Shown piece by piece: positions 2,014 through 15,775 of a stretch of 15,775 bases of DNA (position 1 is the stretch's first letter; every line of letters begins with the position of its first letter). Origin of the DNA: a virus. Taxonomy: Duplodnaviria > Heunggongvirae > Uroviricota > Caudoviricetes. The notes under the pieces were generated by a model, which was not told the DNA's origin, did no database searches, and worked only from the letters and a program-made list of their open reading frames with translations. The position numbers and the translations under genes were made by a program. The stretch lies in IMG/VR virus record IMGVR_UViG_2693429635_000019, positions 1 through 15,775 of that record. One strand, written 5' to 3'.

Positions 2014-2023
2014 ATCAGGCAAT

Positions 2024-2044: not shown

Positions 2045-2103
2045 CAATGGCAGGTCTGGATATCTTGAGAAATGAACAGGCCTCATCGAGTGTGAGGCTG
2101 TGG

Positions 2104-2448
2104 TTAGTCCTTGCGTAACTCGCTAATTCTTCTGTAAGTCTCTGGTGCTTTGTTTCCGTGTATCTTCATTTCAGACTTCAACAGAGCAACGAGGGAATCC
2201 CATTCGTTGAGGATGCCTTTGAATGCCGGAACGCGCTTTGCAACCTTGTCGAATGAATCTCTGATTTCTGGGATCTGCTCAACAAGTGCAACGCATCGTC
2301 GGAAATCGGCTGCGTCATGTGGAGCGCCGAAGTGATGACCATAGATATTCTTTTTCAGTCCACATGCGATTGAGGCAAGAGTTGCGCTACTGATGCCGAC
2401 ATCGCCAGTCGATTGCCATTTCAAAACCTTCATAGCCAAATCTGACAT
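2104..2448 (-). CDS. Hypothetical protein, 114 aa (moron-like, flanked by hairpins)
   Basis: ORF track 2104-2475 trimmed to internal ATG at 2448 preceded by GGAGA RBS (spacing 6); the upstream part of the longer ORF overlaps a terminator-like hairpin. Confidence 0.6.
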   Translation of the reverse strand: MSDLAMKVLKWQSTGDVGISSATLASIACGLKKNIYGHHFGAPHDAADFRRCVALVEQIPEIRDSFDKVAKRVPAFKGILNEWDSLVALLKSEMKIHGNKAPETYRRISELRKD

Positions 2449-2460
2449 TTCTTGTCTCCA

Positions 2461-2485
2461 ATAAAAAACCGCCATCAGGCGGCTT
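2461..2485 (-). terminator. Terminator-like hairpin (CCGCC-TGAT-GGCGG + T-tract) between Zn-ribbon gene and CDS 2104-2448
   Basis: Minus strand AAGCCGCCTGATGGCGGTTTTTTAT; GC stem followed by T6. Confidence 0.4.
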
Positions 2486-2548
2486 GGTGTTCTTTCAGTT
2501 CTTCAATTCGAATATTGGTTACATTGTTTTCATATATGAATAAATAAA

Positions 2549-2728
2549 TTAGCTTTTTTCGTTGCCTTCGCGTTCTTTATTAATTTTGACAAACTCGTTT
2601 TTACCACGCTCTCCAAATGCGTCTTTAGAGTCGTTGTATCCGCAATCGCAGCACACATAATCACCAGACCATCCACGCATTGTTTTTTCTTTTGCAATAT
2701 TTCCAGAACCGCATTTTGGACAAGACAT
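2549..2728 (-). CDS. Small zinc-ribbon protein (CPKC...CCDC), 59 aa
   Basis: ORF track 2549-2761 (TTG start) trimmed to ATG at 2728 with strong GGAGGT RBS; two Cys pairs CxxC and CCxC; AT-rich surrounding sequence. Confidence 0.55.
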   Translation of the reverse strand: MSCPKCGSGNIAKEKTMRGWSGDYVCCDCGYNDSKDAFGERGKNEFVKINKEREGNEKS

Positions 2729-2824
2729 ATCACTACCTCCAAAGCATGAGTGAGATGACAACGTAACATTGATTGGAGATTAACAATAGATTGCTGATGT
2801 AAAAGATATGTATAAGCTTCGCTT

Positions 2825-3445
2825 TCAAAGTGGAGGCTCTGGTAGCGGCATCCAGTGTGACGGCTCACATACCCCCTCAACACCATTCATGTAAAAGAAT
2901 TGAAATAACCCTTTACCTTTGTGAAACCCTACCATCTGCTCTTTTGTGTCTGAGCAATAAACCAAAACATCTTCTTCGTTTGGCATTCGATCACTACAGC
3001 TTATCCAACCATCCGGAGTTACCGGAGAGTTGCCAGATAGCTCGTTCAACTTGTAAGTTTGGCTTACAGGTTCGGCACCATGAAGCATGGCGTCGCGGCA
3101 GGAGTTCCAGCCTCTCACCTCTGCAATAGCGGCAACAGCATCGACCGCGTACATTTTAAGAGGGTTAGGCATTGGTTTTTCTTCAGGTACTACTGGCACT
3201 GGAGGGGCGGCATAAACAGGAATAACGTCCGATTGCTCTTTATTGCTTTCATCCGTTAAAGCCCAGAATAATTTCCCAGCCGGATGTTTGAAAATATAAG
3301 CAACCGGTTCTGCTTCCAGCGATGCCAGAGCAATTCGTGCCAGTTCTTCCGCTTCTTCTGCTGGCAGTACAACGTTGCTACCCGGTCCGTATGTTTCGCG
3401 CCACTGCTTGATTGTCAGCAGTCGCTCTTTGGTTATAGTGGTCAT
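2825..3445 (-). CDS. DUF551-domain phage protein, 206 aa
   Basis: ATG at 3445 overlapping upstream stop (ATGA), AAGGA RBS; C-terminus ...WISCSDRMPNEEDVLVY...HWMPLPEPPL matches the DUF551 signature as I remember it. Confidence 0.75.
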   Translation of the reverse strand: MTTITKERLLTIKQWRETYGPGSNVVLPAEEAEELARIALASLEAEPVAYIFKHPAGKLFWALTDESNKEQSDVIPVYAAPPVPVVPEEKPMPNPLKMYAVDAVAAIAEVRGWNSCRDAMLHGAEPVSQTYKLNELSGNSPVTPDGWISCSDRMPNEEDVLVYCSDTKEQMVGFHKGKGLFQFFYMNGVEGVCEPSHWMPLPEPPL

Positions 3446-3957
3446 GCCGCGTTTCCTTCTTTCTTATTAACAATTACACCGTCATATATTTCATTAAGGT
3501 GCCCTCTCAACTCCATGCGCCTTAATGCAGATAACATGTAATCGCATTCAACCTGCTTATTTCCAGTAAATGGCTTATCGTCAGGATTACCCCAACAGCA
3601 ATTACCCTTGGGCCACCCATGTACTTTCCGTACTCTTCCGTTAACAACGTGAAGTAATCCCCAGCCAGGTGGTAAATCCTCAATTGAAATAATTCCCGGC
3701 TCACTAATAAAGAATCGCCAGTCGCCCATGCCAAGTGAGGGATTTTTACGGAAACGCTTTTTTCTATCTGCCAACAAATCAGCACGAGAACACTTCGCCT
3801 CTATCAGGCATGATGCTGAATTTCTGAATCCCATAGCATCTGGCTGTTCTCCGGTACTGGTTACAGCTATAAAGCGGTCATGAAAACAAACCTTGAACCC
3901 GTTGCGCTTAAGGAACTTGTACGCAATCTGACAGAGTTCGCTGTGTGTTAACGCCAT
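3442..3957 (-). CDS. Hypothetical phage protein, 171 aa, with PD-(D/E)XK-like D...EAK signature
   Basis: ORF track 3442-4008 trimmed to ATG at 3957 (upstream extension overlaps preceding gene); motif PDAMGF...CLIEAKCSRADL resembles restriction-endonuclease-fold core. Confidence 0.65.
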   Translation of the reverse strand: MALTHSELCQIAYKFLKRNGFKVCFHDRFIAVTSTGEQPDAMGFRNSASCLIEAKCSRADLLADRKKRFRKNPSLGMGDWRFFISEPGIISIEDLPPGWGLLHVVNGRVRKVHGWPKGNCCWGNPDDKPFTGNKQVECDYMLSALRRMELRGHLNEIYDGVIVNKKEGNAA

Positions 3958-3961
3958 ATCC

Positions 3962-4363
3962 CTAATTCCCCTTGATGCTGACTTTGACGCCAACCTTGCG
4001 AATCTCATCGGCGCATCTGTTCACGATACTCCGGTGAAACTCACAAAAAATTTTCGCCGACTGCGGCCCTAATGGGTGAACATCGTGCGCACGCGGCAGT
4101 ACAACCTCCCGCGCCTCCATGTCAGCAATCCGCTTGTCTTTGGCTTCCAGCTCATCCAGCAGCGCCCGAACTACATCAGCGGTTTTCTGGCACTGGTCAA
4201 CAATGCTAACGTCACAACCAGTATCGAAACCGTCCTCAGTTTCAAAGCGGAGCTCTACAGAGTCGCCGTCGATATCAGATGGTTCGAACCCGGCAATGTT
4301 TTCCAGAATGCCGATTATGCTTTCTGCGCTATGACGTAATGCGCGTTTGTCGATGTTGCTCAT
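3962..4363 (-). CDS. Hypothetical phage early protein, 133 aa (possibly Ea22-like; coiled-coil segment)
   Basis: ATG at 4363 overlapping stop of upstream gene; LDELEAKDKRIADMEA coiled-coil-like stretch; family assignment from memory only. Confidence 0.6.
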   Translation of the reverse strand: MSNIDKRALRHSAESIIGILENIAGFEPSDIDGDSVELRFETEDGFDTGCDVSIVDQCQKTADVVRALLDELEAKDKRIADMEAREVVLPRAHDVHPLGPQSAKIFCEFHRSIVNRCADEIRKVGVKVSIKGN

Positions 4364-4641
4364 TGGGCGGCCTCCGGTATTTTTCTTGCGCTGAATTGAG
4401 GTACATGTTCCATTTCAACCGTGAATACACCTACGCTCTCACCGTCAATGAATAGCTCGATATCCAACGGCCAGTCAGATTCCAAGCCGTCATGATTGTC
4501 AAAATAATCAAGGGAGGCATCCTGAGACAAGCATTCCAATTCCCACTCAGAAATGAGCTCATCGATGTGTCGAGGATCGAGAAAAAACGCATCCTCAGGA
4601 AACGTGCCTGCATCTCTAACTACGTACTGGATTACGCTCAT
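4360..4641 (-). CDS. Strongly acidic small protein, 93 aa
   Basis: ORF track 4360-4695 trimmed to ATG at 4641 with AAGGAGG RBS and ATGA overlap with upstream stop; about 22 Asp/Glu versus 4 Arg/Lys. Confidence 0.65.
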   Translation of the reverse strand: MSVIQYVVRDAGTFPEDAFFLDPRHIDELISEWELECLSQDASLDYFDNHDGLESDWPLDIELFIDGESVGVFTVEMEHVPQFSARKIPEAAQ

Positions 4642-4985
4642 TGGTTGCCTCCTTTGCGAAGCTGGGCAGCAATACTTACGCATATCTCTGCGCATCTAAT
4701 CAGCCCCGGAACGTTCTTGTTTGGCCCAACTTCACCATCAACAAAATCAATCATCGCGTTACGAGCCATCTCCACACCCTGCGCCCGCACTTCAGCCAGG
4801 AAGGCGTCGGTGGCTGGGGTTCCCTCTACCACTAACCCTACTGGAGCTAGATATTCTTTCATCCCCGCATTCTCCACAGCCAGCGCCGCGCACTTGGCCT
4901 CAAGGTTATCAATCGTGATTCCAGCAGAACGACACTCACGCAACGCTGTTTCTAGTTTTGATTCAAGTTCACCGAACTTACGCAC
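4638..4985 (-). CDS. Hypothetical protein, 115 aa (GTG start, no clear RBS; possibly 3' part of a frameshifted gene)
   Basis: Only in-frame start upstream of internal Met is GTG at 4985, immediately after a stop; overlaps a 42-aa ORF (4952-5080) in another frame. Confidence 0.45.
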   Translation of the reverse strand: MRKFGELESKLETALRECRSAGITIDNLEAKCAALAVENAGMKEYLAPVGLVVEGTPATDAFLAEVRAQGVEMARNAMIDFVDGEVGPNKNVPGLIRCAEICVSIAAQLRKGGNQ

Positions 4986-5076
4986 CAGATATCAGCGTTT
5001 GTTTCGTTAACCTTTAAATCACTTGGGATGCATTTACCTTTCAGAAATCCATCCATCTCAATTAGTGACATTTGTT

Positions 5077-5241
5077 TCATTTCTTCCCACTCCGCCACAT
5101 CGCATTCAGATATTTGTTTTGATTCACTGATGGAAAAGAATTTCTCTTAAGCAATTCCTCTCTCGATGGCATTGGCTTTACGCGTTGGCGAATAATCATT
5201 TCTGCCGGAAGAATGCCGGGATTGTATGCAAGACCTCTCAT
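5077..5241 (-). CDS. Small hypothetical protein, 54 aa (not in ORF track)
   Basis: ATG at 5241 overlapping stop of upstream gene (ATGA), GGAGAG RBS 8 nt upstream, stop TGA 5077-5079; hand-translated. Confidence 0.4.
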
Positions 5242-5528
5242 GATTTACTCTCCACGAACTGGTCAATAGCCATGCTAAGTGACACACCTAAAGTCTCGAT
5301 ATGCTGCTGAATATCCTGTAGCGTCTGCGCCTGAGATAACAGGATTTCACGGTTGCATAACTCTTTAACCAGATGCTCAAACTTGCTGTAATAACCGATA
5401 CGGCTTAGTGTTTCTTTCCCTGCATTCTCGCCTTCTTTGATAATTCCTCTTTCGCTAAGAATCAGATCGTGTTTTGTTCCGGTAATAACGTATTTTCCGA
5501 GGTCGATGTTTAGCTTCATTGTTTTCAT
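5238..5528 (-). CDS. Hypothetical phage protein, 96 aa
   Basis: ORF track 5238-5678 trimmed to ATG at 5528 preceded by GAGGAA RBS; longer version would overlap upstream gene. Confidence 0.6.
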
Positions 5529-5538
5529 TGTTAATTCC

Positions 5539-5832
5539 TCAGTCATTACTGATAGCGCCATAGCGTGAGCGGTAATTACGCAGGCGCGGGTCGATTTCAG
5601 GGAAGTGGGTATATGTGGCTTTGCGGAATGGTCGGATTGATGTCTGGTAAATTCGCTCTCGTTCTTCTTTCTCTGCAAGCCATATGCAGTGGCGAAACTC
5701 CTTTTCCTCTTTCGTTTCCTGCGGTAGAGACATTATTCGATCGTAGTTTTTTCTGAATTTATCCAGCACCTCCGATACGGAATTGCCGGAACAGCGGCGC
5801 GGGTCATCCGCACCATACAGAGGCGCTGGCAT
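5539..5832 (-). CDS. Hypothetical phage protein, 97 aa (sits where P22 has abc genes; unverified)
   Basis: ATG at 5832 with AAGGA RBS; basic/charged composition; position downstream of erf/ssb-like. Confidence 0.6.
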   Translation of the reverse strand: MPAPLYGADDPRRCSGNSVSEVLDKFRKNYDRIMSLPQETKEEKEFRHCIWLAEKEERERIYQTSIRPFRKATYTHFPEIDPRLRNYRSRYGAISND

Positions 5833-5855
5833 AATGGAATCCTTATTTTGCTAAT

Positions 5856-6239
5856 CTAGAAGGGAATTGAATCGTCGTATTCAGGATGATTTTGATGATT
5901 GCTACTTTGCTGCTGTTGGCTGTTTCCTGAAGTTGCAAATCCAATCTTTGCATTCAGTAATTCAAGAGTGATTGATTGACCATTTTGCCCCTGATAAACA
6001 TCAACCCTGATGTTTTCTCCGGTAATTTCCACAATGCCACCTTCAACAAGAACACTACGGTAGTAATCCGCTTGCGCTCCCGGCTTGGCAAATACAACGG
6101 CGCTGTAGTTTGTCCATTCTTTCTTTTTTGTCTGGCGATCGTAATACTGAACGCCAGCACGGATGTTGAATCCGATATTTTCCCCGGCCTGAAACTCTCT
6201 TGCGGGCTTGTTTAGTCTTACAGTAATCGAATGTGCCAT
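5856..6239 (-). CDS. Phage single-stranded DNA-binding-like protein with SSB-type C-terminal tail (...EYDDSIPF)
   Basis: ORF track 5856-6329 trimmed to ATG at 6239 (TAATG overlap with erf stop); OB-fold-like N-terminus, Gln/Ser-rich linker, C-terminal DDSIPF resembling E. coli SSB DDDIPF. Confidence 0.65.
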   Translation of the reverse strand: MAHSITVRLNKPAREFQAGENIGFNIRAGVQYYDRQTKKKEWTNYSAVVFAKPGAQADYYRSVLVEGGIVEITGENIRVDVYQGQNGQSITLELLNAKIGFATSGNSQQQQSSNHQNHPEYDDSIPF

Positions 6240-6844
6240 TAAGCAGCCGCTCCTTCTAATTCGTCTCGTCTGATGTTGTAAACGTCCTGTGCTTTGTGCT
6301 GCTCCGGTGTGCCTTCGAGCATCTTCCACGCTTTGGCGAACGCCTGTTTAAGCTCTTCTACGGTGTTTTTCTGCAATGCTGCGTCAGTGAATGCTTTTAG
6401 AACCTGTTCAGGTGTAGGTGATGGTTTTGATTGCTTTGCTGCTGCGTTCTGCTGATGTTTATGCTCGTCGGTATCTGCATCTTTCGCATCATCAATGCCG
6501 AACAAACCATTGAGGCAATACTTGCGTGCATAAGAGCTTGTAGCTCCCGTAACTTGTGCAGAATCCATTCCTTTCTTGCTTTCTTCCTCTCGTGCAAGAG
6601 CGGTTGCCGTATGGCTGTTTTCGCCATCGGTAATAGTTGCCGTGGCTTTCACGTAATACCGATCACCAATCAGCACAACTTCATCGCTGATTGATAAAAA
6701 CAGGCCATTCAGTAACGGCTTAACGCCTTCAAGAATGTCTTCGCAGCTTCTGTATTTATATTTGCCGAATGAGTTGTACTGATTCTTTGGCGCGTTCAGA
6801 TTCTCCTGAATAGCTGCCAGTCTTGCGTAAAATTCTTTGCTCAT
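6239..6844 (-). CDS. erf: Erf-family single-strand annealing recombinase
   Basis: ORF track 6239-6874 (TTG) trimmed to ATG at 6844; N-terminus MSKEFYARLAAIQENLNAPKNQYNSFGKYKYRSCEDILE matches my recollection of P22 Erf; about 201 aa. Confidence 0.75.
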   Translation of the reverse strand: MSKEFYARLAAIQENLNAPKNQYNSFGKYKYRSCEDILEGVKPLLNGLFLSISDEVVLIGDRYYVKATATITDGENSHTATALAREEESKKGMDSAQVTGATSSYARKYCLNGLFGIDDAKDADTDEHKHQQNAAAKQSKPSPTPEQVLKAFTDAALQKNTVEELKQAFAKAWKMLEGTPEQHKAQDVYNIRRDELEGAAA

Positions 6845-7103
6845 ATGATTGTTCTCAGAATGGACATGGCCCAAGGAAATAACGCTGATTTAATACTTCG
6901 ACTCGGGACAAATTAAGGCATACCCGCATTCCTTCGCGGTCGCCATTATGGCGATACCAGAGAGCTTTCTGCGTGTACATGCGTCTCTGTAACTTGCTCT
7001 CCTTCACTGTGGTTGCAAGTGACATGCATATCTCCTTCGTTACCGATTAATTCTTTCATCTGACGAATGAATTCTTTGTCTGACCAGTTATCTTTGACAT
7101 CCT

Positions 7104-7123
7104 CCACGCCCTAAAGGGCGTGG
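7104..7123 (-). repeat. Perfect 8-bp stem hairpin (CCACGCCC-TTTA-GGGCGTGG) containing the tnpB stop codon; candidate IS right-end / omega-RNA structural element
   Basis: Inverted repeat seen directly; TAG stop of tnpB at 7111-7113 lies in the loop/stem. Confidence 0.6.
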
Positions 7124-8202
7124 ATTCCTCCTTCGAGACGGCGATGTCCCGCCGCGAGAATGTTCTTTGCCGCGTTTACGTCGCGGTCGTGGAGTTCACC
7201 ACATTCCACGCAGATCCATTCTCTTATTCCAAGGCCTACCCTACCCTTCGGACTACTGCAGCTAATAGCTCCGCAGCACGAGCAAGTCTGGGTGGTGTAC
7301 GCTTCATCTACGACCTCAAAAACCACACTCCGCGCAATCGCTTTATACTGAATCTGATTTTTTAGCTGACACCAGCCGGCGTCGTAGATACTTTTTGCCA
7401 AATTTGTTTTTGATAACTTTTTACTGCTTACGTCGCCTACAAAAATAGCGGCGTATTTATTAACCAGCGCCGTAGAAAACTTATGGTGTGCATCTTTACG
7501 GCGATTTTTGATTTTTGCGTGGATAGCTCTAACACGTTTTTTATTATGGGCACGTTGAGCAATTTTTAATTTGCCTTCTAATTCACGATACCAACGTTTA
7601 GCAGGAAGTTTTTCACCATCCGAAGTGGTGGCAATGTCTTTCAGACCAAGATCGATACCCACGTCGGCAGTGCCTTTAGTTGGTTCGCATTCGTATTCAA
7701 CTGCAACATTGAAATACCAGCGACCGCGCGCATCTTCTGCAAAGTTACCAGCACGGAATTTAAAGCCATTTAATCCATAGCTATCCCACACTTTGAAATA
7801 GTGCCCGGCAAACTTGATGCAGCCGTTTACCCATTTCACTTGAGCACCTTTGAACGGAACCCAACCAAGACTACGCCCAGCACCGCCACTTTTACGCCAG
7901 CGCAGCTTACTGCGTTTAAACTGTTTACGCGCTTTAGCGTGATGTTTTGAGATTTCCTGACAAGTAGCTGCTTGTATGTGGTATCCGCGCTCCTTTTGAA
8001 TACCAGCAATGCGTTTATCTACGTCAAATTCAGTTAACCAAACTCTTTGTTTTGGTCCGTATTCGCTGACAGTGCTGTATTCAGTCGCAGTCATTTCATT
8101 GATAAAGTTAAAAACTTGGTTCACTTCAAAGGCCATCTGACGCAACAAGGCGGCGTGGCGGTCTTTGACGCGTACCTGCAATGTTTTAGTCTGAATAGCC
8201 AT
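7111..8202 (-). CDS. tnpB: TnpB-like protein (IS200/IS605 OrfB family, RuvC-like + zinc finger), 363 aa; RuvC-II catalytic position apparently substituted
   Basis: ATG at 8202 with AAGGGGAG RBS; GIDLGLKD (RuvC-I), AYTTQTCSCCG...CVECG zinc finger, HDRDVNAAKNILAAG (RuvC-III); expected hhhEDLN motif reads AIFVGDVSS. Confidence 0.9.
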   Translation of the reverse strand: MAIQTKTLQVRVKDRHAALLRQMAFEVNQVFNFINEMTATEYSTVSEYGPKQRVWLTEFDVDKRIAGIQKERGYHIQAATCQEISKHHAKARKQFKRSKLRWRKSGGAGRSLGWVPFKGAQVKWVNGCIKFAGHYFKVWDSYGLNGFKFRAGNFAEDARGRWYFNVAVEYECEPTKGTADVGIDLGLKDIATTSDGEKLPAKRWYRELEGKLKIAQRAHNKKRVRAIHAKIKNRRKDAHHKFSTALVNKYAAIFVGDVSSKKLSKTNLAKSIYDAGWCQLKNQIQYKAIARSVVFEVVDEAYTTQTCSCCGAISCSSPKGRVGLGIREWICVECGELHDRDVNAAKNILAAGHRRLEGGIHAL

Positions 8203-8228
8203 TTACTTGCTCCCCTTATTGGTAAAAC

Positions 8229-8399
8229 TCATGGACGGCCTTGTTGTTTCAAAATATCCCAAAGCTTTTCGAGCAAGCTTTTCATTCTTGGTTGTTTAAA
8301 GTCTGCTCCGGTTAAAATATTTTTTCGTGAATGCTGTACCGATAAAATCGGGTTGAAAGGGCGAACCGATGCCGCCCCTGCAATAGCGAACTGTTGCAT
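8229..8399 (-). CDS. cIII: CIII-like small protein (FtsH inhibitor homolog), 56 aa
   Basis: Internal ATG at 8399 of ORF 8229-8504 with AAGGAG RBS; MQQFAIAG... and ...LLEKLWDILKQQGRP resemble lambda CIII (MQYAIAG...RLIDILNQPGVP) from memory; followed upstream by a terminator as in lambda tL1-cIII. Confidence 0.55.
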   Translation of the reverse strand: MQQFAIAGAASVRPFNPILSVQHSRKNILTGADFKQPRMKSLLEKLWDILKQQGRP

Positions 8400-8605
8400 A
8401 GGATGCTCCTTCTGTTTGATTGCATAACGAAAACGCCTCGAGTGAAGCGTTATTGGTATGCATATAAAAAGGCCCTCACACTGGAGGGCAAAGAAGATTT
8501 CCAATAATCAGAACAAGTCGGCTCCTGTTTAGTTACGAGCGACATTGCTCCGTGTATTCACTCGTTGGAATGAATACACAGTGCTGTGTTTATTCTGTTG
8601 TTTAT

Positions 8606-8634
8606 GCCAAAAATAAAGGCCGACTATGCGGCCT
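8606..8634 (-). terminator. Rho-independent terminator (tL1-like) between membrane-protein gene and cIII-like gene
   Basis: Minus strand AGGCCGCATAGTCGGCCT followed by TTATTTTTGG; 5 nt downstream of stop at 8639. Confidence 0.6.
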
Positions 8635-8638
8635 GAAA

Positions 8639-9004
8639 TTACTTAACCAATGATGCCGCATATTCGATAAGGTAAAGTTTTGGAGCAAGCCAAATCTTCA
8701 GCCAGTCGAAATAATTGAAAAAAACAATAACAGAAGTAATCTCTATTCCTGATGTGACAAGTAGCGATAAGATCACAATATCCGCATCATCTCCTTTATT
8801 CCATGCAAAAATCATCAGATAAACACACGCTATAATCACCAATACACAGATAGCCTGAATTCCAGCTGATGATACGGCGTGCCACATCAAAAGCTGATGG
8901 ATGACATCAGGAATCTGTGCCTGGCTAAATGAAACAGCCGCGTCTATTCCATTGCTGGCTTTTTGCAGTAGTTCTACGAGAATCTTGTTTGCTTGTTCTT
9001 CCAT
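8639..9004 (-). CDS. Small membrane protein (2-3 predicted TM helices), 121 aa; candidate superinfection-exclusion-type protein by position
   Basis: ATG at 9004 with AAGGTGA RBS; long hydrophobic segments (AGIQAICVLVIIACVYLMIFAW, IVILSLLVTSGIEITSVIVFF); occupies the sieB position of lambda. Confidence 0.6.
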   Translation of the reverse strand: MEEQANKILVELLQKASNGIDAAVSFSQAQIPDVIHQLLMWHAVSSAGIQAICVLVIIACVYLMIFAWNKGDDADIVILSLLVTSGIEITSVIVFFNYFDWLKIWLAPKLYLIEYAASLVK

Positions 9005-9063
9005 ATATCACCTTGATTGTAATAAGCATGAAATTATTTACGGCTAAAAAATAAAGGCCACCA

Positions 9064-9315
9064 TCAGGCAGCCTTGTTGTAAATGTTGCAGGTATCAAGT
9101 AAGTAATTAGATGGAGCGCCATAAATTATGAATTCATCGTTTGTCGGATCCATCTCCATCTCTTGGCCTATTGCCACTCTTGCGTCAGTGTCATCAGCGG
9201 CGAAGCATAAAACAGCCCACGCTCCCATTGTTTTAAAAAGAACTGCAATTGGCTGTGGTTTTACTGAATTTGCGTTAGCGCGAAAATCACAAATCGCACT
9301 TTCATGAAATTCCAT
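9064..9315 (-). CDS. Hypothetical protein, 83 aa, immediately downstream of N
   Basis: ORF track 9064-9372 trimmed to ATG at 9315 with GAGGT RBS; longer form would overlap N. Confidence 0.55.
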   Translation of the reverse strand: MEFHESAICDFRANANSVKPQPIAVLFKTMGAWAVLCFAADDTDARVAIGQEMEMDPTNDEFIIYGAPSNYLLDTCNIYNKAA

Positions 9316-9323
9316 ATCTAACC

Positions 9324-9650
9324 TCAAATAAGTGGTTTGCTGCCTAATTTCATTTTCTGGCGACCAACACAAGTCACACCCATTTCACTGCGTGGCTTGC
9401 TGTACCATGTGCGCTGATTCTTGCGCTCAATACGTTGCAGGTTGCTTTCAATCTGTTCGTGGTATTCAGCCAGCACCGTAAGGTCTATCGGATTCAGTGC
9501 GCTTTCTACTCGTGATTTCGGTTTGCGATTCAGCGAGAGAATAGGGCGGTTAACTGGTTTTGCGCTTACCCCAACTAACAGGGGATTTGCTGCTTTCCAT
9601 TGAGCCTGTTTCTCTGCGCGACGTTCGCGGCGGCGTGTTTGTGCATCCAT
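9324..9650 (-). CDS. N: Antitermination protein N (lambda-type)
   Basis: ORF track 9324-9782 trimmed to ATG at 9650 with GGAGA RBS; MDAQTRRRERRAEKQAQWKAANPLLVGVSAKPVNRPILSLNRKPKSRVESALNPIDLTVLAEYH... near-identical to lambda N as remembered; arginine-rich N-terminal motif. Confidence 0.9.
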   Translation of the reverse strand: MDAQTRRRERRAEKQAQWKAANPLLVGVSAKPVNRPILSLNRKPKSRVESALNPIDLTVLAEYHEQIESNLQRIERKNQRTWYSKPRSEMGVTCVGRQKMKLGSKPLI

Positions 9651-9807
9651 CTGGATTCTCCTGTCAGTTAGCTTTGGTTGTGTGTGGGAGTCGTAGTCCT
9701 GAACGAAAACACCCCGCAATGGCACATTGGCAGCTAATCCGGATTCGCACTTCCGGCCAATGCTTCGTTTCGTATCACACACACCAAAGCCTTCTGCTTT
9801 GAATGCT

Positions 9808-9838
9808 GCCCTTCTTCAGGGCTTAATTTTTAAGAGCC
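9808..9838 (-). promoter_or_regulatory. nutL site (boxA GCTCTTA, boxB GCCCTGAAGAAGGGC)
   Basis: Minus strand GCTCTTAAAAATTAAGCCCTGAAGAAGGGC identical to lambda nutL as remembered; located between PL and N. Confidence 0.85.
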
Positions 9839-9871
9839 TCACCTTCATGGTGGTTAGTGCGTCCTGCTGAT

Positions 9872-9900
9872 GGCTAAATAGTACGATTTGTACTTTATCG
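9872..9900. promoter_or_regulatory. Candidate OL operator sites (GTAC-centred 17-bp motif) overlapping PL
   Basis: cgatttgtactttatcg (9884-9900) in the PL spacer closely matches OR site tctaaaagtacatatcg (10754-10770) when read on the minus strand; second GTAC at 9881-9884 over the -10. Confidence 0.45.
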
Positions 9901-9906
9901 AGTCAA
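9878..9906 (-). promoter_or_regulatory. PL promoter (-35 TTGACT, 17-bp spacer, -10 TACTAT)
   Basis: Minus-strand hexamers with consensus spacing; downstream sequence from ATCAGCAGGACGCACT onward matches the lambda PL leader. Confidence 0.7.
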
Positions 9907-9969
9907 TACAAAATGTTCTAAATATGATTAGTTTTTTATAACGCTTTGTATTTAATGGGTTTATGTTTT

Positions 9970-10001
9970 GGAAAAAGAAAACCCGACGCTAAGGTCGGGT
10001 T
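9970..10001 (-). terminator. Rho-independent terminator downstream of the repressor gene
   Basis: Minus strand AACCCGACCTTAGCGTCGGGTT stem-loop followed by TTCTTTTTCC; resembles lambda terminator distal to cI/rex. Confidence 0.6.
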
Positions 10002-10031
10002 ATTGTTGTGTGTTTTAGAGTTGTGAGGCTG

Positions 10032-10691
10032 TTAACTAAATGTCTCTTCAGGCCACTGGCTGGCGATAACTTTCCCTACTACGGAACAGCTATCATTGCA
10101 TGGAATCATTGGATATTGCGGGTTTAGTGGCTGTAGGAACACCTGACCGCTATCCCTGATCAGTTTCTTGAAGGTAAACTCGTCACCACCAAGTCTGGCT
10201 ATGCAGAAATCACCTGGCTCAACAGCCTGCTCAGGGTCAACGAGAATTAACATCCCGTCAGGAAAGCTTGGCTTGGATCCTGTTGGCGCGGTCATGGAAT
10301 TACCTTCAACTTCAAGCCAGAACGCACAATCACTGGCTTTTTTGGTTGTGCTGACCCATCTCTCCGCATCACCTTTGGTAAAGGTTCTAAGCTCAGGCGA
10401 GAACATCCCGGCCTGAACATGAGAAAAAACAGGGTACTCATATTGTTTTTTAACGGGGGCAGATGAGTATTCGCCAACAGGTGAAAATGTACCGTCGTGG
10501 TTGAATGAGACGTTATCAATACCAAGGTATTTAAACACCACACCAATCTCGTCAAGAGATGGATGACGAGATCCGCGCAACCAGTGACCAATTCCACCCT
10601 GCGTCATACCAAGCTCTTCAGCTAACTTCTCTTGAGTTATGCCGAGCTCTTTCATTCTGGATCTAGCCAGTTCATACCATTTCATTTTCAT
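10032..10691 (-). CDS. cI: CI-type phage repressor, hybrid: heterologous XRE-type HTH N-domain + lambda-identical C-terminal S24 autopeptidase domain
   Basis: C-terminal 140 aa ([39 protein letters not shown]...[15 protein letters not shown]) match lambda CI from memory; N-terminus differs; start chosen at ATG 10691 (AAGGG RBS), alternatives ATG 10727 or TTG 10733. Confidence 0.85.
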
Positions 10692-10703
10692 ACCCTTATT
10701 ATT

Positions 10704-10770
10704 ACGCTCTGTACTAAAACCATCCATGCACAAGATGTATTTTTTGTTTGCATTCTAAAAGTACATATCG
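10704..10770. promoter_or_regulatory. OR operator region: three candidate sites about 25 bp apart (10704-10720, 10729-10745, 10754-10770) sharing an AAAGTACA-like core
   Basis: GTAC-centred 17-mers at the two outer positions, degenerate middle site; outer site fills the PR spacer, inner site abuts the repressor start. Confidence 0.45.
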
Positions 10771-10776
10771 TATTAT
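10748..10776 (+). promoter_or_regulatory. PR promoter (-35 TTGCAT, 17-bp spacer, -10 TATTAT)
   Basis: Hexamers and spacing seen directly, 27 nt upstream of cro ATG. Confidence 0.6.
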
Positions 10777-10802
10777 TGTTTCATGGTTACTATGGAGGGC
10801 AT

Positions 10803-11018
10803 ATGAGCAACCTACGAAAATATCGAGAGTCACTGAATATCTCTCAAACAACACTTGCTAAGGCAGTTGGATGCACACAGGGAGCTATCGGACATTGGGA
10901 ATCTGGTCGTCGCTTCCCAGACCTTAAAACATGCCGTGCTCTTGTTGAGTGCCTAAACAAGTTAGGCGCAAAAGTCAGTCTTGATGACGTGTTCCCGCCG
11001 GAACACAAAGCCGCTTAA
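10803..11018 (+). CDS. cro: Cro-like repressor (XRE-family HTH), 71 aa
   Basis: ATG at 10803 with GGAGGG RBS; HTH ISQTTLAKAVGCTQGAIGHWESGRR similar to the repressor recognition region; divergent from repressor gene; ORF track extension 10632-10802 is non-coding. Confidence 0.8.
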   Translation: MSNLRKYRESLNISQTTLAKAVGCTQGAIGHWESGRRFPDLKTCRALVECLNKLGAKVSLDDVFPPEHKAA

Positions 11019-11026
11019 GACATTCT

Positions 11027-11058
11027 AGCTCTTACACATCCCCGCCCTGAAAAAGGGC
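11027..11058 (+). promoter_or_regulatory. nutR site (boxA AGCTCTTA, boxB GCCCTGAAAAAGGGC)
   Basis: boxB identical to lambda nutR boxB as remembered, boxA one mismatch; immediately downstream of cro. Confidence 0.85.
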
Positions 11059-11134
11059 ATTACCAGAAACAAATCTCTATGGTTTTGCGTTTCTTTGCGA
11101 AGCCAACTCTATCTAATCATTAAGGAAATTATCT

Positions 11135-11416
11135 ATGGTTACTATTGCAACTAAAAGCAAGAAAGCGGCTCGCATCGAGTCGGCCTTGCTGAACAAACTG
11201 GCACTGATGGGGCAGAAGACATTCGCTCGAGCAATGGGGGTTCCTGAATATCAGGTAAGCCGATGGAAGAATGGTTTCTTCTCGCAGGTAAGCATGATGC
11301 TTGCTGTTCTGGAATACGGAATCGAAGACGATGAAATGGCTGAATTGACTAAGCGGCTTGCCGATTACCTGACAAAAGAAAAAGCCCCGAAGAACGGCGA
11401 ATTCTTCGAGGCCTGA
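11135..11416 (+). CDS. cII: CII transcriptional activator (lambda-type)
   Basis: 93 aa; ARIESALLNKLALMG...SRWK...MLAVLEYGIEDDEMAEL aligns to lambda CII; AAGGA RBS. Confidence 0.9.
   Translation: MVTIATKSKKAARIESALLNKLALMGQKTFARAMGVPEYQVSRWKNGFFSQVSMMLAVLEYGIEDDEMAELTKRLADYLTKEKAPKNGEFFEA
11384..11412 (-). terminator. Antisense intrinsic terminator inside 3' end of cII (oop-like RNA terminator candidate)
   Basis: Minus strand GCCTCGAAGAATTCGCCGTTCTTCGGGGC stem-loop followed by TTTTTCTTTT; lambda oop terminates at the equivalent position. Confidence 0.4.
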
Positions 11417-11450
11417 TGTAGAAAGACTGGATCAATCCACAGGAGTAATT

Positions 11451-11612
11451 ATGACAAAACGTCGTAAGAAATACCAGGAAAAAGAAGAGATTCGACACCC
11501 TGATTCACCTGAGGGATTAGTGGTAGCCGCAGCAAATAACAGGGCGTTCGCAGAGCGCCTTGTTGGTGTTTACAGACTAGCCAAAGCAGGAGTGAAACAT
11601 GGGCGTCGTTAA
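11451..11612 (+). CDS. Small basic protein, 53 aa (not in ORF track)
   Basis: ATG at 11451 with AGGAG RBS 5 nt upstream; stop TAA 11610-11612, overlapping the start of the replication initiator by 14 nt. Confidence 0.35.
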   Translation: MTKRRKKYQEKEEIRHPDSPEGLVVAAANNRAFAERLVGVYRLAKAGVKHGRR

Positions 11613-12489
11613 GTTAGCTGATTACAGGCATAACCCTGTACAACATCAGGAGGCATCCAGTATGGGGTATGTCTCTATACACCGCCAGTTTATGGACAGC
11701 AGGCTCTATAAGGACTCTCAGGCAGTACATCTTTGGCTTCACTTAATCCTCAAGGCTAATCACGAATCTACTGTCGTCAATACGGATATCGGTCCGATAA
11801 CTGTTGATCGCGGTCAGATGATAACTGGACGCCCGTCGCTGGTCAGAGAAACATTCATCCCCGACAACAAAGTTCGGAGCTTATTACGGACTTTTGAGTC
11901 GAAAGGGATGCTTAATATTTCCTCGATGGGGAAGAAATTTAGCCTGTTTACAATCGTTAAATATGACGATTTTCAGGCAAAAAATTGTCCAACGGTTGTC
12001 CAACGGTTGTCCAACGCAAACACCAGTAATGGCGCGGCTCTCAGCGGAGATTGTCCAACGGTTGTCCAACGGTTGTCCATAAACAATAATATAAATAATA
12101 TCTCTAATACTGACGTATTAGGGAGTGCCACAGCAGACAAAAAGTCTGACAAGAAAAAACCTTCCGTTAGCTGTCAGGATGTTGTCGATGCTTACCACGA
12201 AATCCTTCCTGAAGCGCCAAGAATCCGCGCACTGAATGACAAGCGTAAAAACCAGATCCGAACGTTCTGGCGCAAAGCCGGAGTGATAACCCGCCAGCTT
12301 GACGGGCATGGGTTCACGATGCAGGACTGGAGAAATTATTTGAGCTACGTAGGAGAAAATTGCCGATGGATGTTCGAAGAGCGCCCAAACCATCAACGCG
12401 GAACTGTCTGGCACAAAAAGGGATTTGATTTCCTGCTTAACGATAATACCTACCTGAAAGTTCGTGAGGGTGAACACGATGACCGATAA
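11599..12489 (+). CDS. Replication initiator protein (lambda O / P22 gp18 functional analogue) containing the origin iterons
   Basis: 296 aa, ATG 11599 with GGAG RBS; internal direct repeats plus AT-rich tract typical of lambdoid ori inside the initiator gene; followed by DnaB-like helicase. Confidence 0.8.
   Translation: MGVVKLADYRHNPVQHQEASSMGYVSIHRQFMDSRLYKDSQAVHLWLHLILKANHESTVVNTDIGPITVDRGQMITGRPSLVRETFIPDNKVRSLLRTFESKGMLNISSMGKKFSLFTIVKYDDFQAKNCPTVVQRLSNANTSNGAALSGDCPTVVQRLSINNNINNISNTDVLGSATADKKSDKKKPSVSCQDVVDAYHEILPEAPRIRALNDKRKNQIRTFWRKAGVITRQLDGHGFTMQDWRNYLSYVGENCRWMFEERPNHQRGTVWHKKGFDFLLNDNTYLKVREGEHDDR
11985..12080 (+). repeat. Origin iterons: two clusters of TTGTCCAACGG direct repeats (11985-12016 and 12051-12080) followed by an AT-rich unwinding tract (12081-12120)
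   Basis: Repeats read directly: ttgtccaacggttgtccaacggttgtccaacgc ... ttgtccaacggttgtccaacggttgtccat then aaacaataatataaataatatctctaatac. Confidence 0.75.
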
Positions 12490-13915
12490 TTTTTATGCGC
12501 CGCCCCATAGCATCGAGGCAGAGCAGGCGGTGATTGGTGGATTGCTTCTGGATGATGACAGCAGTGAGCGCGTCCAGAAAGTTCTGGCGATGCTGAAGCC
12601 TGATTCATTTTACAGCCGACCACACAAAATCCTTTTCGAAGAAATAACCAGAATGCACCGGGAGCAAAAGCCAGTAGATGGCCTGACGCTTTTCGATGAA
12701 CTGGATCGCAAATCGTTAACGGTGTCTGTTGGCGGTTTTGCTTATATCGCTGAGATCGCAAAGAACACGCCAAGCGCCGCAAACATCGTTGCCTATGCAA
12801 TGCAGGTTCGCGAAACCGCAATGGAACGCTACGCCATCAACCGCATGACTGAAGCGACGGAATTGCTCTATTCCCGCAACGGAATGACTGCAACGCAGAA
12901 GTACGAAGCTATTCAGGCGATTTTCACGCAACTGACAGACCATGCAAAAACCGGATCGCGTCGCGGCCTTCGCTCATTTGGTGAGGTAATGGAAGACTGG
13001 GTTAGCGACCTTGAGAAGCGATTTGACCCGTCAGGCGAACAACGAGGAATGAGCACAGGGATCCCATCGCTGGACAGGATGCTGTCACCGAAAGGTCTGG
13101 TGAAAGGCTCTCTGTTTGTCATTGGCGCTCGCCCTAAGATGGGGAAAACGACGCTATACAGCCAGATGGCAATCAACTGCGCAGTGCATGAGAAAAAGCC
13201 CGCTCTGATGTTCAGCCTTGAAATGCCCGGTGACCAGATACTGGAAAAACTGGTAGGACAGAAGTCAGGTGTTAACCCGAATATTTTTTACCTTCCGGCG
13301 ACAAATGACGCTGATGACGGCTATCAGGGTGATTACGATGGTGACTTCAACAGGGCGATCGAAACAGCCAATCGCTTGAGTGAAATCGACATGCTTTACA
13401 TCGACGACACGCCGGGATTATCTCTGGCTCAAATCGTCAGCGAAAGCCGTCGAATCAAGCGAGAAAAAGGATGTGTTGGCATGATTCTGGTCGATTACCT
13501 GACACTAATGACCGCTGAGAAGGCCGATCGCAACGACCTTGCTTACGGCATGATCACCAAAGGACTGAAGAACCTTGCCAAAGAGCTTGATTGCGTTGTT
13601 GTGCTTCTGACGCAGCTTAACCGCGCACTGGAAAGCCGAACCAATAAACGCCCACTACCAAGTGACTCACGAGATACAGGGCAGATTGAACAGGATTGCG
13701 ATTATTGGGTGGGGATCCATCGTGAAGGTGCTTTTGATGACAGTGTTCCACCTGGTGAAACCGAACTAATCCTTCGTCTCAATCGTCATGGCAATACCGG
13801 CACGGTGTATTGCATTCAGGCAAATGGCGCTATTTATGACACAGACCAACAGTCTGCTGAAATGCGCCGCCGTGAACGCGAGGAACCGCAGTCCAAGAAG
13901 AAAGGAGGATTCTGA
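12479..13915 (+). CDS. Replicative DNA helicase, DnaB family (P22 gp12-like)
   Basis: 478 aa from ATG 12479 (GAGGGTG RBS; GTG 12464 alternative); DnaB N-terminal motif PPHSIEAEQAVIGGLLLD, Walker A GARPKMGKT, RecA-like C-domain. Confidence 0.9.
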   Translation: MTDNFYAPPHSIEAEQAVIGGLLLDDDSSERVQKVLAMLKPDSFYSRPHKILFEEITRMHREQKPVDGLTLFDELDRKSLTVSVGGFAYIAEIAKNTPSAANIVAYAMQVRETAMERYAINRMTEATELLYSRNGMTATQKYEAIQAIFTQLTDHAKTGSRRGLRSFGEVMEDWVSDLEKRFDPSGEQRGMSTGIPSLDRMLSPKGLVKGSLFVIGARPKMGKTTLYSQMAINCAVHEKKPALMFSLEMPGDQILEKLVGQKSGVNPNIFYLPATNDADDGYQGDYDGDFNRAIETANRLSEIDMLYIDDTPGLSLAQIVSESRRIKREKGCVGMILVDYLTLMTAEKADRNDLAYGMITKGLKNLAKELDCVVVLLTQLNRALESRTNKRPLPSDSRDTGQIEQDCDYWVGIHREGAFDDSVPPGETELILRLNRHGNTGTVYCIQANGAIYDTDQQSAEMRRREREEPQSKKKGGF

Positions 13916-13943
13916 TGACCATCTACATCACTGAGCTAATAAC

Positions 13944-13975
13944 AGGCCTGCTGGTAATCGCAGGCCTTTTTATTT
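13944..13975 (+). terminator. Rho-independent terminator-like hairpin after helicase gene
   Basis: AGGCCTGC-TGGTAATC-GCAGGCCT followed by TTTTTATTT; overlaps a possible 27-aa ORF (13915-13998). Confidence 0.5.
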
Positions 13976-13990
13976 GGGGGAGAGTAAATC

Positions 13991-14197
13991 GTGGCTGAGT
14001 TTATGCTCGTCGCATTCAAATGCGTTGGCGTTGGATGGATTCTTCTGACGTTTTTTATTGTTCTGCGTAGCTACATTCGTCTTGTGAATGACGGCAAAGA
14101 CCCATGGTATACGTTGTTTGGCGCTGCATTTGTCTGGGTGATTATCGGTGTTATGCCTGTTGTCGTAGCAAAAATGGCGTGGCGTTTTGTGAGTTGA
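13991..14197 (+). CDS. Small membrane protein 1 (2 TM), 68 aa
   Basis: GTG at 13991 preceded by GGGGGAGAG (ATG 14003 alternative); two hydrophobic helices. Confidence 0.45.
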   Translation: MAEFMLVAFKCVGVGWILLTFFIVLRSYIRLVNDGKDPWYTLFGAAFVWVIIGVMPVVVAKMAWRFVS

Positions 14198-14214
14198 ACT
14201 GAGGGTAAGTATCG

Positions 14215-14481
14215 ATGGACGAATCAAGAAAGCAGTTTGAAGAATGGTTTGAAAATTACACCGGATGTGATCCTAAAAATAAAATATACGCCAATATGGT
14301 TGAGATGTATTGGCAAGCGTGGCAGGCATCGCGAGCAGCTATCGAGATTGAGTGTCCTGGAAAAAGAGAGCGTGAGGCATTTTCTACCGATTTCGAGGAT
14401 GGGGTCACATTTGGTTATAACGACGCAATTAGTGAATGCGAAGGACGGATTCGCGCTGCTGGAGTCAAAGTGAAGGGGTGA
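14215..14481 (+). CDS. Hypothetical protein, 88 aa, paralog A (N-terminus MDESRKQFEE, motif WQASRAAIE)
   Basis: ATG 14215; shares start sequence and internal motifs with CDS 14939-15295. Confidence 0.6.
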   Translation: MDESRKQFEEWFENYTGCDPKNKIYANMVEMYWQAWQASRAAIEIECPGKREREAFSTDFEDGVTFGYNDAISECEGRIRAAGVKVKG

Positions 14482-14483
14482 GC

Positions 14484-14669
14484 ATGAGTCGACGAAGTAG
14501 CTTTTTGGGGTTTGTAATATTCCTGTTCTGCACTGGTTACATCGTAATCTGGTCAATTTCGAACATTGACCGTGGCGGGGAATATCTCATTGTAATGTTC
14601 TTTCCTTTGTTTCTTGGGTGGTACGCCGCAAGGTTGCTGGAAGAATGGGGTTACAGGCATAAAAAATAA
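14484..14669 (+). CDS. Small membrane protein 2 (2 TM), 61 aa
   Basis: ORF track 14436-14669 trimmed to ATG 14484 with AAGGGG RBS, directly after stop of paralog A. Confidence 0.5.
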   Translation: MSRRSSFLGFVIFLFCTGYIVIWSISNIDRGGEYLIVMFFPLFLGWYAARLLEEWGYRHKK

Positions 14670-14728
14670 AGGAGTGTTCAGTGAAGCAAACCCTTTTTTA
14701 TTGGATTAAGAGCGAGTGGTAAGTACCG

Positions 14729-14911
14729 ATGGTAAATGCATTTATTTGTAGTTTATTTCTTGTCGCGATTTTTCATGGATTCCTTCTGATGATGAGTTTT
14801 GTTCTCTGGAATAATGGATATCGCATATTGGGAGTAGGTTTTGTTTTACGGTTTTCAGTTGTCTGCGCGTTGCTACCGATAATTATGGCGACTATCAAAT
14901 ATTATTGGTAA
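14729..14911 (+). CDS. Small membrane protein 3 (2 TM), 60 aa
   Basis: ATG 14729; hydrophobic; upstream sequence GGTAAGTACCGATGG repeats the sequence preceding paralog A (GGTAAGTATCGATGG). Confidence 0.45.
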   Translation: MVNAFICSLFLVAIFHGFLLMMSFVLWNNGYRILGVGFVLRFSVVCALLPIIMATIKYYW

Positions 14912-14938
14912 CCCAAAAAATCATCGATGGAGAGTGAT

Positions 14939-15295
14939 ATGGACGAATCAAGAAAGCAGTTTGAGGAATACGTTGCCAAAAAATTGAGATTACCATTCGA
15001 GATGATAACCGAGGCAAGAAATGGTGATAGGTACTTCGCATTTTCAAGCATGGATATTCGTCACTCCTTAAATGAGTGGTGGACTTTATGGCAGGCATCG
15101 CGAGCAGCTATTGAACTGGATATCGACTGGCCAGAATCGAATGACGACTTTTGGAAAGATGGTGAAGAAGGTGCTTATGCGATGGGTTATGAGGATGGGC
15201 GTGACAAAACGGTAATTGCAGTAATGAAAGCTATCAGAGCCGCTGGAATTAAAGAGAAGAATTTCGATGAAGCAAACAATCTTCCTCCGAAGTAA
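14939..15295 (+). CDS. Hypothetical protein, 118 aa, paralog B (N-terminus MDESRKQFEE, motif WQASRAAIE)
   Basis: ORF track 14927-15295 trimmed to ATG 14939 (GGAGAG RBS) where nucleotide identity with paralog A start begins. Confidence 0.6.
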   Translation: MDESRKQFEEYVAKKLRLPFEMITEARNGDRYFAFSSMDIRHSLNEWWTLWQASRAAIELDIDWPESNDDFWKDGEEGAYAMGYEDGRDKTVIAVMKAIRAAGIKEKNFDEANNLPPK

Positions 15296-15677
15296 GCAAC
15301 AACAGCAAGCCGCAATAAATGCCATCCTCGCAACACCACTCGATAAAGACAAGCCAGTCACCATCCGCATTACTGACTACAAGCGCAACCTTGACCAGAA
15401 CGCAAAATTTCACGCGATGCTGGCGGATATCGCTCGTCAGGTTCAATGGTGCGGCAAATGGTTAAAACCGGAACAATGGAAGGTTTTGTTGATCAGCGGT
15501 CATGCAGTGGCAACAAAACAGGAAGCTGATGTTTTGCCCGGGCTTGAAGGCGAATACGTCAACATTCGCGAAAGTAGCGCGCAGATGAGTGTGAAGCGTA
15601 TGGCAAGTCTGATTGAGTACACGACAGCATGGGCTATTGGTCAGGGTGTCAGATTTACCGACAGGAGGTACGAATGA
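15267..15677 (+). CDS. ninB: NinB-family recombination protein
   Basis: 136 aa; pattern [32 protein letters not shown]...EQWK matches lambda NinB (ERNRSLDQNRKLWACLGDVSRQVEWHGRWL) from memory; overlaps preceding gene by 29 nt. Confidence 0.8.
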
Positions 15678-15775
15678 GACGACAGCGACGAAGTTTCACC
15701 GACATCATCTGCGAAAACTGCAAATACCTTCCAACGAAACGCTCCAGAAATAAACGCAAGCCAATCCCAAAAGAA
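15674..15775 (+). CDS. NinE-like protein, 5' partial (truncated by window end)
   Basis: ATG 15674 overlapping ninB stop (ATGA), AGGAGG RBS; [34 protein letters not shown] resembles NinE as I recall it. Confidence 0.5.

Follow-up and report, generated by a model that had tools for sequence, protein, structure and literature searches.

The subject of this analysis is positions 9840-10802 of a 15,775-nt stretch of DNA (15.8 kb, referred to below as the window), which covers positions 1 to 15,775 of the IMG/VR record IMGVR_UViG_2693429635_000019 and is part of an Escherichia coli lambdoid prophage. The region contains the promoter PL with the left operators (OL), a cI-type repressor gene, and the right operators (OR) with the promoter PR. 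An original prediction, made from the DNA letters alone, had proposed a natural domain swap in the repressor that creates a new immunity specificity. We find that the region is very probably the immunity (lysis/lysogeny switch) module of the prophage and that it is of the VT2-Sakai/Sp5 immunity type. This type is already known, common and previously described, and is not a new specificity. The make-up of VT2-Sakai CI, with a lambda-like C-terminal part and a divergent N-terminal part, was described by Fattah et al. in 2000 (as cited in PMC10742460), and the hybrid composition was noted again in PMC2629481 and PMC8951638, the latter placing both Sakai CI and lambda CI in clade I. The mosaic anatomy given in the prediction is present at its coordinates and holds in outline, with the corrections set out below. 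The prediction itself had named an N-terminal domain and operators of an already characterised type as evidence against novelty, and VT2-Sakai has both. The region is a clean textbook case of how lambdoid phages are mosaics, here with the recombination joint within a gene, at the linker between two domains, and this case has been in the literature since 2000.

The assignment is carried by the repressor, Cro and the operators. The predicted CI is identical to VT2-Sakai CI at 209 of 216 residues (97%); three substitutions (D/S, E/D and V/I) fall in the N-terminal domain, all of them outside the helix-turn-helix (HTH), which is identical in the two proteins. Cro is identical to VT2-Sakai Cro at 70 of 71 residues. 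A published rule of thumb places phages in the same specificity when repressor and Cro share about 92% identity or more with the prototype (PMC2629481, Table 1). Six 17-bp sites, three in OL and three in OR, homologous to the six annotated in the VT2-Sakai record (AP000422) and with their half-sites kept, complete the correspondence. The hallmarks of the lambda immunity type are missing: the region has no lambda-type N-terminal domain, no TATCACCGC-type operators and no lambda-type Cro.

The same chimeric CI, Cro and operators are found in VT2-Sakai, Stx1 phages, Nil2 and phage 2851 with ~93% DNA and 97-99% protein identity. The plaque-forming phages Dewey, Louie, vB_EcoP-683R2, vB_EcoP-720R6 and phi458 carry positions 10410-10830, which cover the cI N-terminal part, OR and the start of cro, at 99-100% identity. 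At least 80% of 9840-10830 is present in 776 of 5,426 complete E. coli genomes (~14%), and matches of at least 99% are found in 88 records. Membership of the Sp5/VT2-Sakai immunity group, to which the prophage can be assigned, has a bearing on superinfection immunity against Stx phages.

The window shares with VT2-Sakai (Sp5; AP000422), whose immunity region is also that of Sp15-type Stx1 phage, Nil2 and 2851, the order of the operators, their contact positions, the junction with a lambda-like C-terminal part of CI and a homologous t_imm terminator. The differences are a DNA divergence of ~7%, an OR1-OR2 spacing of 32 bp in VT2-Sakai against 33 bp here, and the genes H0092 and H0093, which stand between cI and OL in VT2-Sakai, whereas the window has no genes there. 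N, nutL and nutR are of another type in VT2-Sakai, while those of the window are of the lambda/HK544 type, and cII differs as well. In Dewey one block of 98.5% identity spans PL/OL to nutR (9785-11098), with the same order of cI, t_imm and OL and with a lambda-like N. The N gene is equally close to that of the window, and the downstream replication genes of Dewey, Louie, 683R2, 720R6 and phi458 differ.

The operators were located with a weight matrix built solely from the six annotated VT2-Sakai sites and scanned over the whole window. The six putative operators are among the top seven matrix hits, and five of them score at least 13.9, compared with a mean maximum of 11.8 in shuffled sequence. 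They are as follows:

9879-9895: OL1, TAGTACGATTTGTACTT (reverse complement AAGTACAAATCGTACTA), matrix score 19.8, the best in the window; 16 of 17 positions as in VT2-Sakai
9904-9920: OL2, CAATACAAAATGTTCTA, matrix score 16.2; 15 of 17 as in Sakai, both differences central
9937-9953: OL3, TATAACGCTTTGTATTT, matrix score 13.95; 16 of 17 as in Sakai
10700-10716: OR3, TATTACGCTCTGTACTA, matrix score 14.4; 16 of 17 as in Sakai
10726-10742: OR2, ATGCACAAGATGTATTT, matrix score 10.8, the weakest of the six; 15 of 17 as in Sakai, both differences central
10759-10775: OR1, AAGTACATATCGTATTA, matrix score 18.0; 15 of 17 as in Sakai

Altogether 93 of the 102 operator positions are the same in the window and in Sakai, and of the nine differences six fall at the central positions 9-11, two at 17 and one at 3. 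Across the OL region, conservation between window and Sakai reaches 92% in the operators and ~54% in the spacers that separate them, a phylogenetic footprint that is consistent with function. Among the 12 half-sites, A is found at position 2 in 11 and T at position 4 in nine, while A5 and C6 occur in all 12, giving the half-site consensus (T/A)A(G/A)TAC(A/G). The recognised element is a TAC-N5-GTA dyad with a 5-bp centre, so the earlier description of the operators as GTAC-centred has to be replaced by one in which TAC and GTA are half-site elements on either side of that centre. OL1 and OR1 had been noticed before as a 17-bp motif common to PL and PR; 14 of their 17 positions do agree, and both overlap their promoter in its spacer and -10 hexamer, and OL2, OL3, OR2 and OR3 are now added to the set. 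Measured from centre to centre, OR1 and OR2 are 33 bp apart, OR2 and OR3 26 bp, OL1 and OL2 25 bp, and OL2 and OL3 33 bp. A further matrix hit at 9285-9301 (AATCACAAATCGCACTT, score 11.6) was rejected as an operator because ~0.7 such hits are expected by chance per window and it lies inside an open reading frame downstream of N.

Promoters were identified by consensus scan and by homology to the annotation of the VT2-Sakai record:

9878-9906, minus strand: PL, with -35 TTGACT (9906-9901), a 17-nt spacer and -10 TACTAT (9883-9878); homologous to the annotated VT2-Sakai PL
10748-10776, plus strand: PR, with -35 TTGCAT and -10 TATTAT (10771-10776); homologous to the annotated VT2-Sakai PR
10698-10726, minus strand: predicted PRM, with -10 AATAAT (10703-10698) and a weak -35 TGGATG (10726-10721); homologous to the PRM of AP000422, with its geometry inferred

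The PL start point is placed at ~9871 through homology with the HK544 annotation. OL1 overlaps the PL -10 and spacer and OL2 overlaps the PL -35, while OR1 overlaps the PR spacer and -10. On the cI side, OR3 overlaps the PRM -10, and OR2 abuts the PRM -35 and ends 5 bp upstream of the PR -35. The predicted PRM would start transcription at the A of the first cI ATG (10691), which would give a leaderless transcript as in lambda.

Several observations weigh against the reading of the region as a VT2-Sakai-type switch. The OR2 score of 10.8 is about the chance maximum. At 33 bp from OR1, this site stays clear of the PR -35, which its counterpart in lambda does not; the weight-matrix hit list has no alternative OR2 candidate at the lambda-like distance of ~24 bp from OR1. 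The placement and weak score of OR2 therefore make the cooperative pairing and the geometry of PRM activation uncertain. In lambda CI the activation patch sits in the N-terminal domain, which is the part replaced in the window CI. The six operators of AP000422 are themselves labelled 'putative' in that record, and our literature search found no footprint of a cognate Sakai-type CI or Cro on these operators. The sole binding data found concern lambda CI, which binds VT2-Sa operators with an apparent Kd of 3.7-6.4 μM (PMC10742460). We considered whether that binding indicates a specificity shared by lambda and VT2-Sa and rejected the idea, since the affinity is weaker than that for lambda OR3 and the half-sites differ at positions 3, 4, 7 and 8. 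In the literature searched, the cognate repressor-operator biochemistry of an immunity type present in ~14% of complete E. coli genomes thus seems to be unmeasured, and the coordinates given here for the six putative operators and the module junctions are exact.

The cI product has the architecture of a LexA/CI-type (Peptidase S24) repressor, with an N-terminal HTH (HTH_3, Pfam E = 8.3e-11, residues 11-58), a Peptidase_S24 domain (Pfam E = 8.9e-29), a Ser/Lys dyad and an Ala-Gly site in the linker. In an alignment with the lambda, Sakai, epsilon34 and L repressors, the cleavage-site motif VQAGMF and the motifs GNSM (Ser) and FKK (Lys) are invariant. From YEYPVF to its end the protein is ~98% identical to lambda CI (93% at the DNA level), differing in three residues; the description of this domain as lambda-identical is borne out as near-identity, not as full identity. 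Two in-frame ATG codons could start the gene, at 10691 (MKMKWYEL) and at 10685 (MKWYEL), and the VT2-Sakai record annotates the second one. The N-terminal domain, of the HTH_3 type, is distantly homologous to that of lambda CI: it weakly matches the lambda repressor N-terminal domain 1lli (E = 7e-4), and BLASTP aligns its helices 2-3 with those of lambda, with few identities in the domain. The statement in the original prediction that the repressor N-terminal domain, Cro and operators are unrelated to lambda is fair for Cro and too strong for the other two, as the half-sites keep A2, A5 and C6 of the lambda half-sites.

Three-way alignments with lambda (NC_001416) and VT2-Sakai were used to map the mosaic, in which the repressor gene is divided into two segments:

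10032-10443, minus strand: lambda-type cI segment, encoding the linker, in which the Ala-Gly cleavage site lies, and the Peptidase_S24/oligomerisation domain
10444 to the start codon, minus strand: VT2-Sakai-type cI segment, encoding the HTH_3 DNA-binding domain and the beginning of the linker

The 3' segment (10032-10443) has a DNA identity of 93.0% to lambda, 91.3% to VT2-Sakai and 94.6% to HK544. The 5' segment (10444-10685) is 95% identical to VT2-Sakai and 43% identical to lambda, an alignment with 46 gap positions. The step from 93% to 43% identity to lambda occurs at 10443/10444 without a gradient, at the codons Q|YEYPVF. These correspond to lambda residues ~100/101, in the linker and 11 residues before the Ala111-Gly112 cleavage site; the earlier reading had likewise put the breakpoint in the linker. 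Comparable transitions bound the rest of the switch. Homology to lambda ends at 9872 within the 14-nt GCGTCCTGCTGATG (9859-9872, at about the PL start point), which is common to lambda, VT2-Sakai and the window and where the Sakai-type OL starts; this left mosaic junction is likely a recombination joint. The OL region (9873-9960) is 45% identical to lambda and 76% to VT2-Sakai, the OR region (10686-10802) is 86% identical to VT2-Sakai with no significant match to lambda, and 3' of the cro stop codon the sequence switches again to a lambda-like nutR. The module is a patchwork in which an N, nutL and leader of HK544/lambda type are followed by a Sakai-type OL, t_imm, a lambda-type cI 3' part, a Sakai-type cI 5' part, OR and cro, a lambda-type nutR and a cII of a third type. 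The segments were most likely joined through recombination at short shared sequences, one of them in the cI linker, and either lambda or the lineage of the Sakai type may be the recombinant.

Relatives of the N-terminal domain bear on whether the junction reflects exchange. These were found by tblastn against phages and by an exhaustive search of representatives; used as the query of a word-indexed protein search, the 83-aa N-terminal domain retrieved nothing but pieces of its own protein, without any alternative C-terminal partner. Repressors with an N-terminal domain 45-55% identical to that of the window carry C-terminal domains that are 32-48% identical or undetectable, and the C-terminal near-identity to lambda is for this reason a product of exchange and not of co-descent. 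The abruptness of the DNA step, from 93% to 43% within a few bases, likewise argues for recombination in cI and not for differential divergence. A history of purely vertical descent, with stronger purifying selection on the C-terminal domain and no recombination in cI, is accordingly very improbable. It has in its favour that conservation is generally higher in S24 than in HTH domains and that the epsilon34 repressor is intermediate, being 54% identical in its N-terminal and ~85% in its C-terminal part. Such a history, however, does not account for an identity that includes synonymous sites and falls without a gradient, for an N-terminal and linker part (10444-10685) that aligns with lambda only with many gaps, or for junctions of the flanking modules that are as sharp as the one in cI.

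With recombination in cI accepted, the swap could still be unique to this element and confer an unrecognised specificity, as had been proposed. The N-terminal domain, cro and operators are indeed unlike those of lambda, 434, P22 and 933W, and the intragenic junction is real. Against this stand the same CI, Cro and operators in VT2-Sakai, Stx1 phages, Nil2 and 2851, their near-exact counterparts in several isolated phages, the 776 E. coli genomes and the account from 2000 cited in PMC10742460, and we regard a specificity unique to this element as highly unlikely. A further reading, very improbable as well, is that of a cryptic prophage whose immunity region has decayed into a non-functional remnant with an inoperative switch. 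A solo TnpB gene in the PL operon (7111-8202) and a left end in which no integrase separates the host gene from the xis-like gene would fit decay, but cI, cro, N, cII, O and P are intact open reading frames, the six operators and both promoters are intact, and an identical immunity region is present in plaque-forming phages; the separation of a torI-type xis from int is, moreover, an established prophage layout. A functional module of the VT2-Sakai type, assembled by recombination, remains the reading that we adopt.

The module is built on the lambda plan and differs from lambda in its specificity elements. Both have the layout PL-OL, cI, OR-PRM-PR, cro, nutR and cII, with 17-bp operators and conserved A2, A5 and C6 in the half-sites. 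With lambda (NC_001416) and HK544 (EF120455) the window shares N (91% protein identity to lambda), the boxB sequences, the PL leader, t_imm and the cI linker and C-terminal part (93-95% DNA identity). The half-site is TA(G/A)TAC(A/G) in the window and TATCACCG in lambda, with differences at positions 3, 4, 7 and 8, position 4 being T here and an invariant C in lambda. Operator spacing is 33/26 bp (OR) and 25/33 bp (OL) in the window compared with 24/23 and 24/20 bp in lambda. Lambda has rexAB while the window has none, and of the two it is the window that has an HTH_3-type Cro.

More distant relatives are found among Salmonella P22-like phages. The repressors of epsilon34 (gp46) and L (c2) have an N-terminal domain of the same family, with ~54% identity; that of epsilon34 is paired with a lambda-like C-terminal domain (~80-85%), while the C-terminal domain of the phage L repressor is not lambda-like. 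A study from 2008 reported that the epsilon34 repressor is ~80% identical to lambda/HK97 in its C-terminal and ~50% to L, VT2-Sa and Nil2 in its N-terminal part (PMC2629481), and our alignments confirm the relationships of the epsilon34 and L repressors. The same study predicted WTACRAWWTGTAT operators for epsilon34, which have the same TAC-N5-GTA core as those of the window. With N-terminal domains that are only about half identical, the specificity of epsilon34 and L is probably different, and their hosts and flanking modules also differ from those of the window.

From the observed anatomy, the homologies and the way in which the operators lie with respect to the promoter hexamers, we infer CI binding, cooperativity, autoregulation and RecA-dependent cleavage. 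CI dimers would bind the six two-fold-symmetric operators, occupancy of OL1 and OL2 shutting off PL and occupancy of OR1 shutting off PR. Because OR2 abuts the weak PRM -35 and OR3 covers the PRM -10, a lambda-like switch logic is expected, in which PRM would be subject to positive and then negative autoregulation. The HTH_3-type Cro, with a similar recognition helix, would compete for the CI sites. Dimerisation and cooperativity should be lambda-like, and induction should proceed by RecA-stimulated autocleavage, which is expected from the lambda-type linker and C-terminal domain (~98% identical to lambda CI) with its Ala-Gly site and Ser/Lys dyad. Upon induction, an N protein of lambda specificity would antiterminate at the lambda-type nutL and nutR.

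A lambda-type C-terminal domain is carried by several immunity types, namely lambda/HK544, the Sakai type and, more distantly, epsilon34. As the linker and C-terminal domain of the window CI are essentially those of lambda and are common to these types, mixed dimers, tetramers or octamers could arise between the repressors of heteroimmune prophages residing in one cell and would couple their immunity and induction, and the odd operator spacing may shift the cooperative pairs and alter the switch logic. We consider this a speculative and rather unlikely extension. If true, mixed oligomers would be a possible basis for the cross-immunity between lambda and VT2-Sa that was reported by Fattah et al. 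(as cited in PMC10742460). The combination of an unusual operator spacing with a lambda-type cooperativity domain is in itself a feature of the region.

The genes and sites on either side of cI complete the switch. In Pfam, Cro hits families of the HTH_3 type and no others, and the cro region of lambda is not similar to it; the HTH of Cro and the HTH of CI from the same module are 35% identical. Lambda Cro has a different fold, and in 434 and P22 the Cro and CI proteins are of similar type and both read the same sites. The N protein is identical to lambda N at 98 of 108 residues. Residues 1-64, including the arginine-rich boxB-binding N-terminus, are identical and the first 85 nearly so, which agrees with the earlier statement that N matches lambda almost exactly; the last ~22 residues diverge and are of the HK544 type. 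In the DNA, identity to lambda is 98.4% over 9392-9647 and 55% over the 3' end of the gene (9324-9391), and HK544 is 98.4% identical over 9310-9684. The PL leader, also put forward as lambda-like, has an identity of 95.6% to lambda over 9648-9872. About 100 bp of the N leader are lambda-like in the window and replaced in Dewey and phi458 (9677-9784), with a replacement over 9685-9777 when HK544 is included.

Both nut sites had been described as matching lambda, which holds for boxB and not entirely for boxA. The nutL boxB, GCCCTGAAGAAGGGC (9822-9808), and the nutR boxB, GCCCTGAAAAAGGGC (11044-11058), are identical to their lambda counterparts, whereas boxA of nutL (GGCTCTTA, 9838-9831) and of nutR (AGCTCTTA, 11027-11034) each differ in the first base from the lambda boxA CGCTCTTA. 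N and nut specificity is of the lambda type, with the arginine-rich motif of N, both boxB sequences and seven of eight boxA positions at each site in place. The cII gene is of a third type, its product being identical to lambda CII at 43 of 88 residues (49%) and also unlike that of Sakai. A CII-type TTGC-N6-TTGC site on the minus strand (11147-11160), at the 5' end of cII and in the position of a PRE -35, marks a predicted PRE.

In the window, the order of the features is N, nutL, PL/OL, a terminator, cI, OR/PRM/PR, cro, nutR and cII. To the right of the host gene at the left end come early-left genes, including erf and an anti-RecBCD gene, then the immunity region, and then O/P-type replication and nin genes. 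The coordinates are as follows:

1-1248: host MFS-transporter gene, at the left end of the window
9324-9650, minus strand: N antiterminator gene, 108 aa, from translation; Pfam N36 E = 1.5e-26
9808-9838, minus strand: nutL, from alignment with lambda and direct sequence reading
9878-9953: PL and OL
9980-10001, minus strand: t_imm-like intrinsic terminator, from a terminator scan; homologous to lambda and Sakai t_imm
10032-10691 (or 10685), minus strand: cI
10698-10776: OR, PRM and PR
10803-11018, plus strand: cro, 71 aa; Pfam HTH_3 E = 1.4e-12
11027-11058, plus strand: nutR, from three-way alignment
11135-11416, plus strand: cII; Pfam Phage_CII E = 3e-30

The 'rex slot' (9954-10031) is empty: the t_imm-like terminator lies directly 3' of cI, and neither rexAB nor other cargo is found before OL. 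The stem of this terminator has a compensatory G:C to A:T change. The distance between OL1 and OR1 is 880 bp in the window compared with ~2.4 kb in lambda.

Two further observations concern the early-left part of the window. The solo TnpB gene at 7111-8202 (minus strand), of the IS200/IS605 family (InsQ) and the RNA-guided endonuclease family, lies within the PL operon with no tnpA nearby. A scan of the whole window against Rfam at gathering thresholds gave no match and hence no RNA associated with TnpB. The insertion is also present in E. coli strain A2. At the left end (1249-2475), a torI-like excisionase gene adjoins the host MFS-transporter gene with no integrase between them, an arrangement that resembles the layout of KplE1, in which a torI-type xis is likewise set apart from int. 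The sequence of this junction between excisionase and host gene is common in E. coli, being present at a coverage of at least 80% in 372 genomes.

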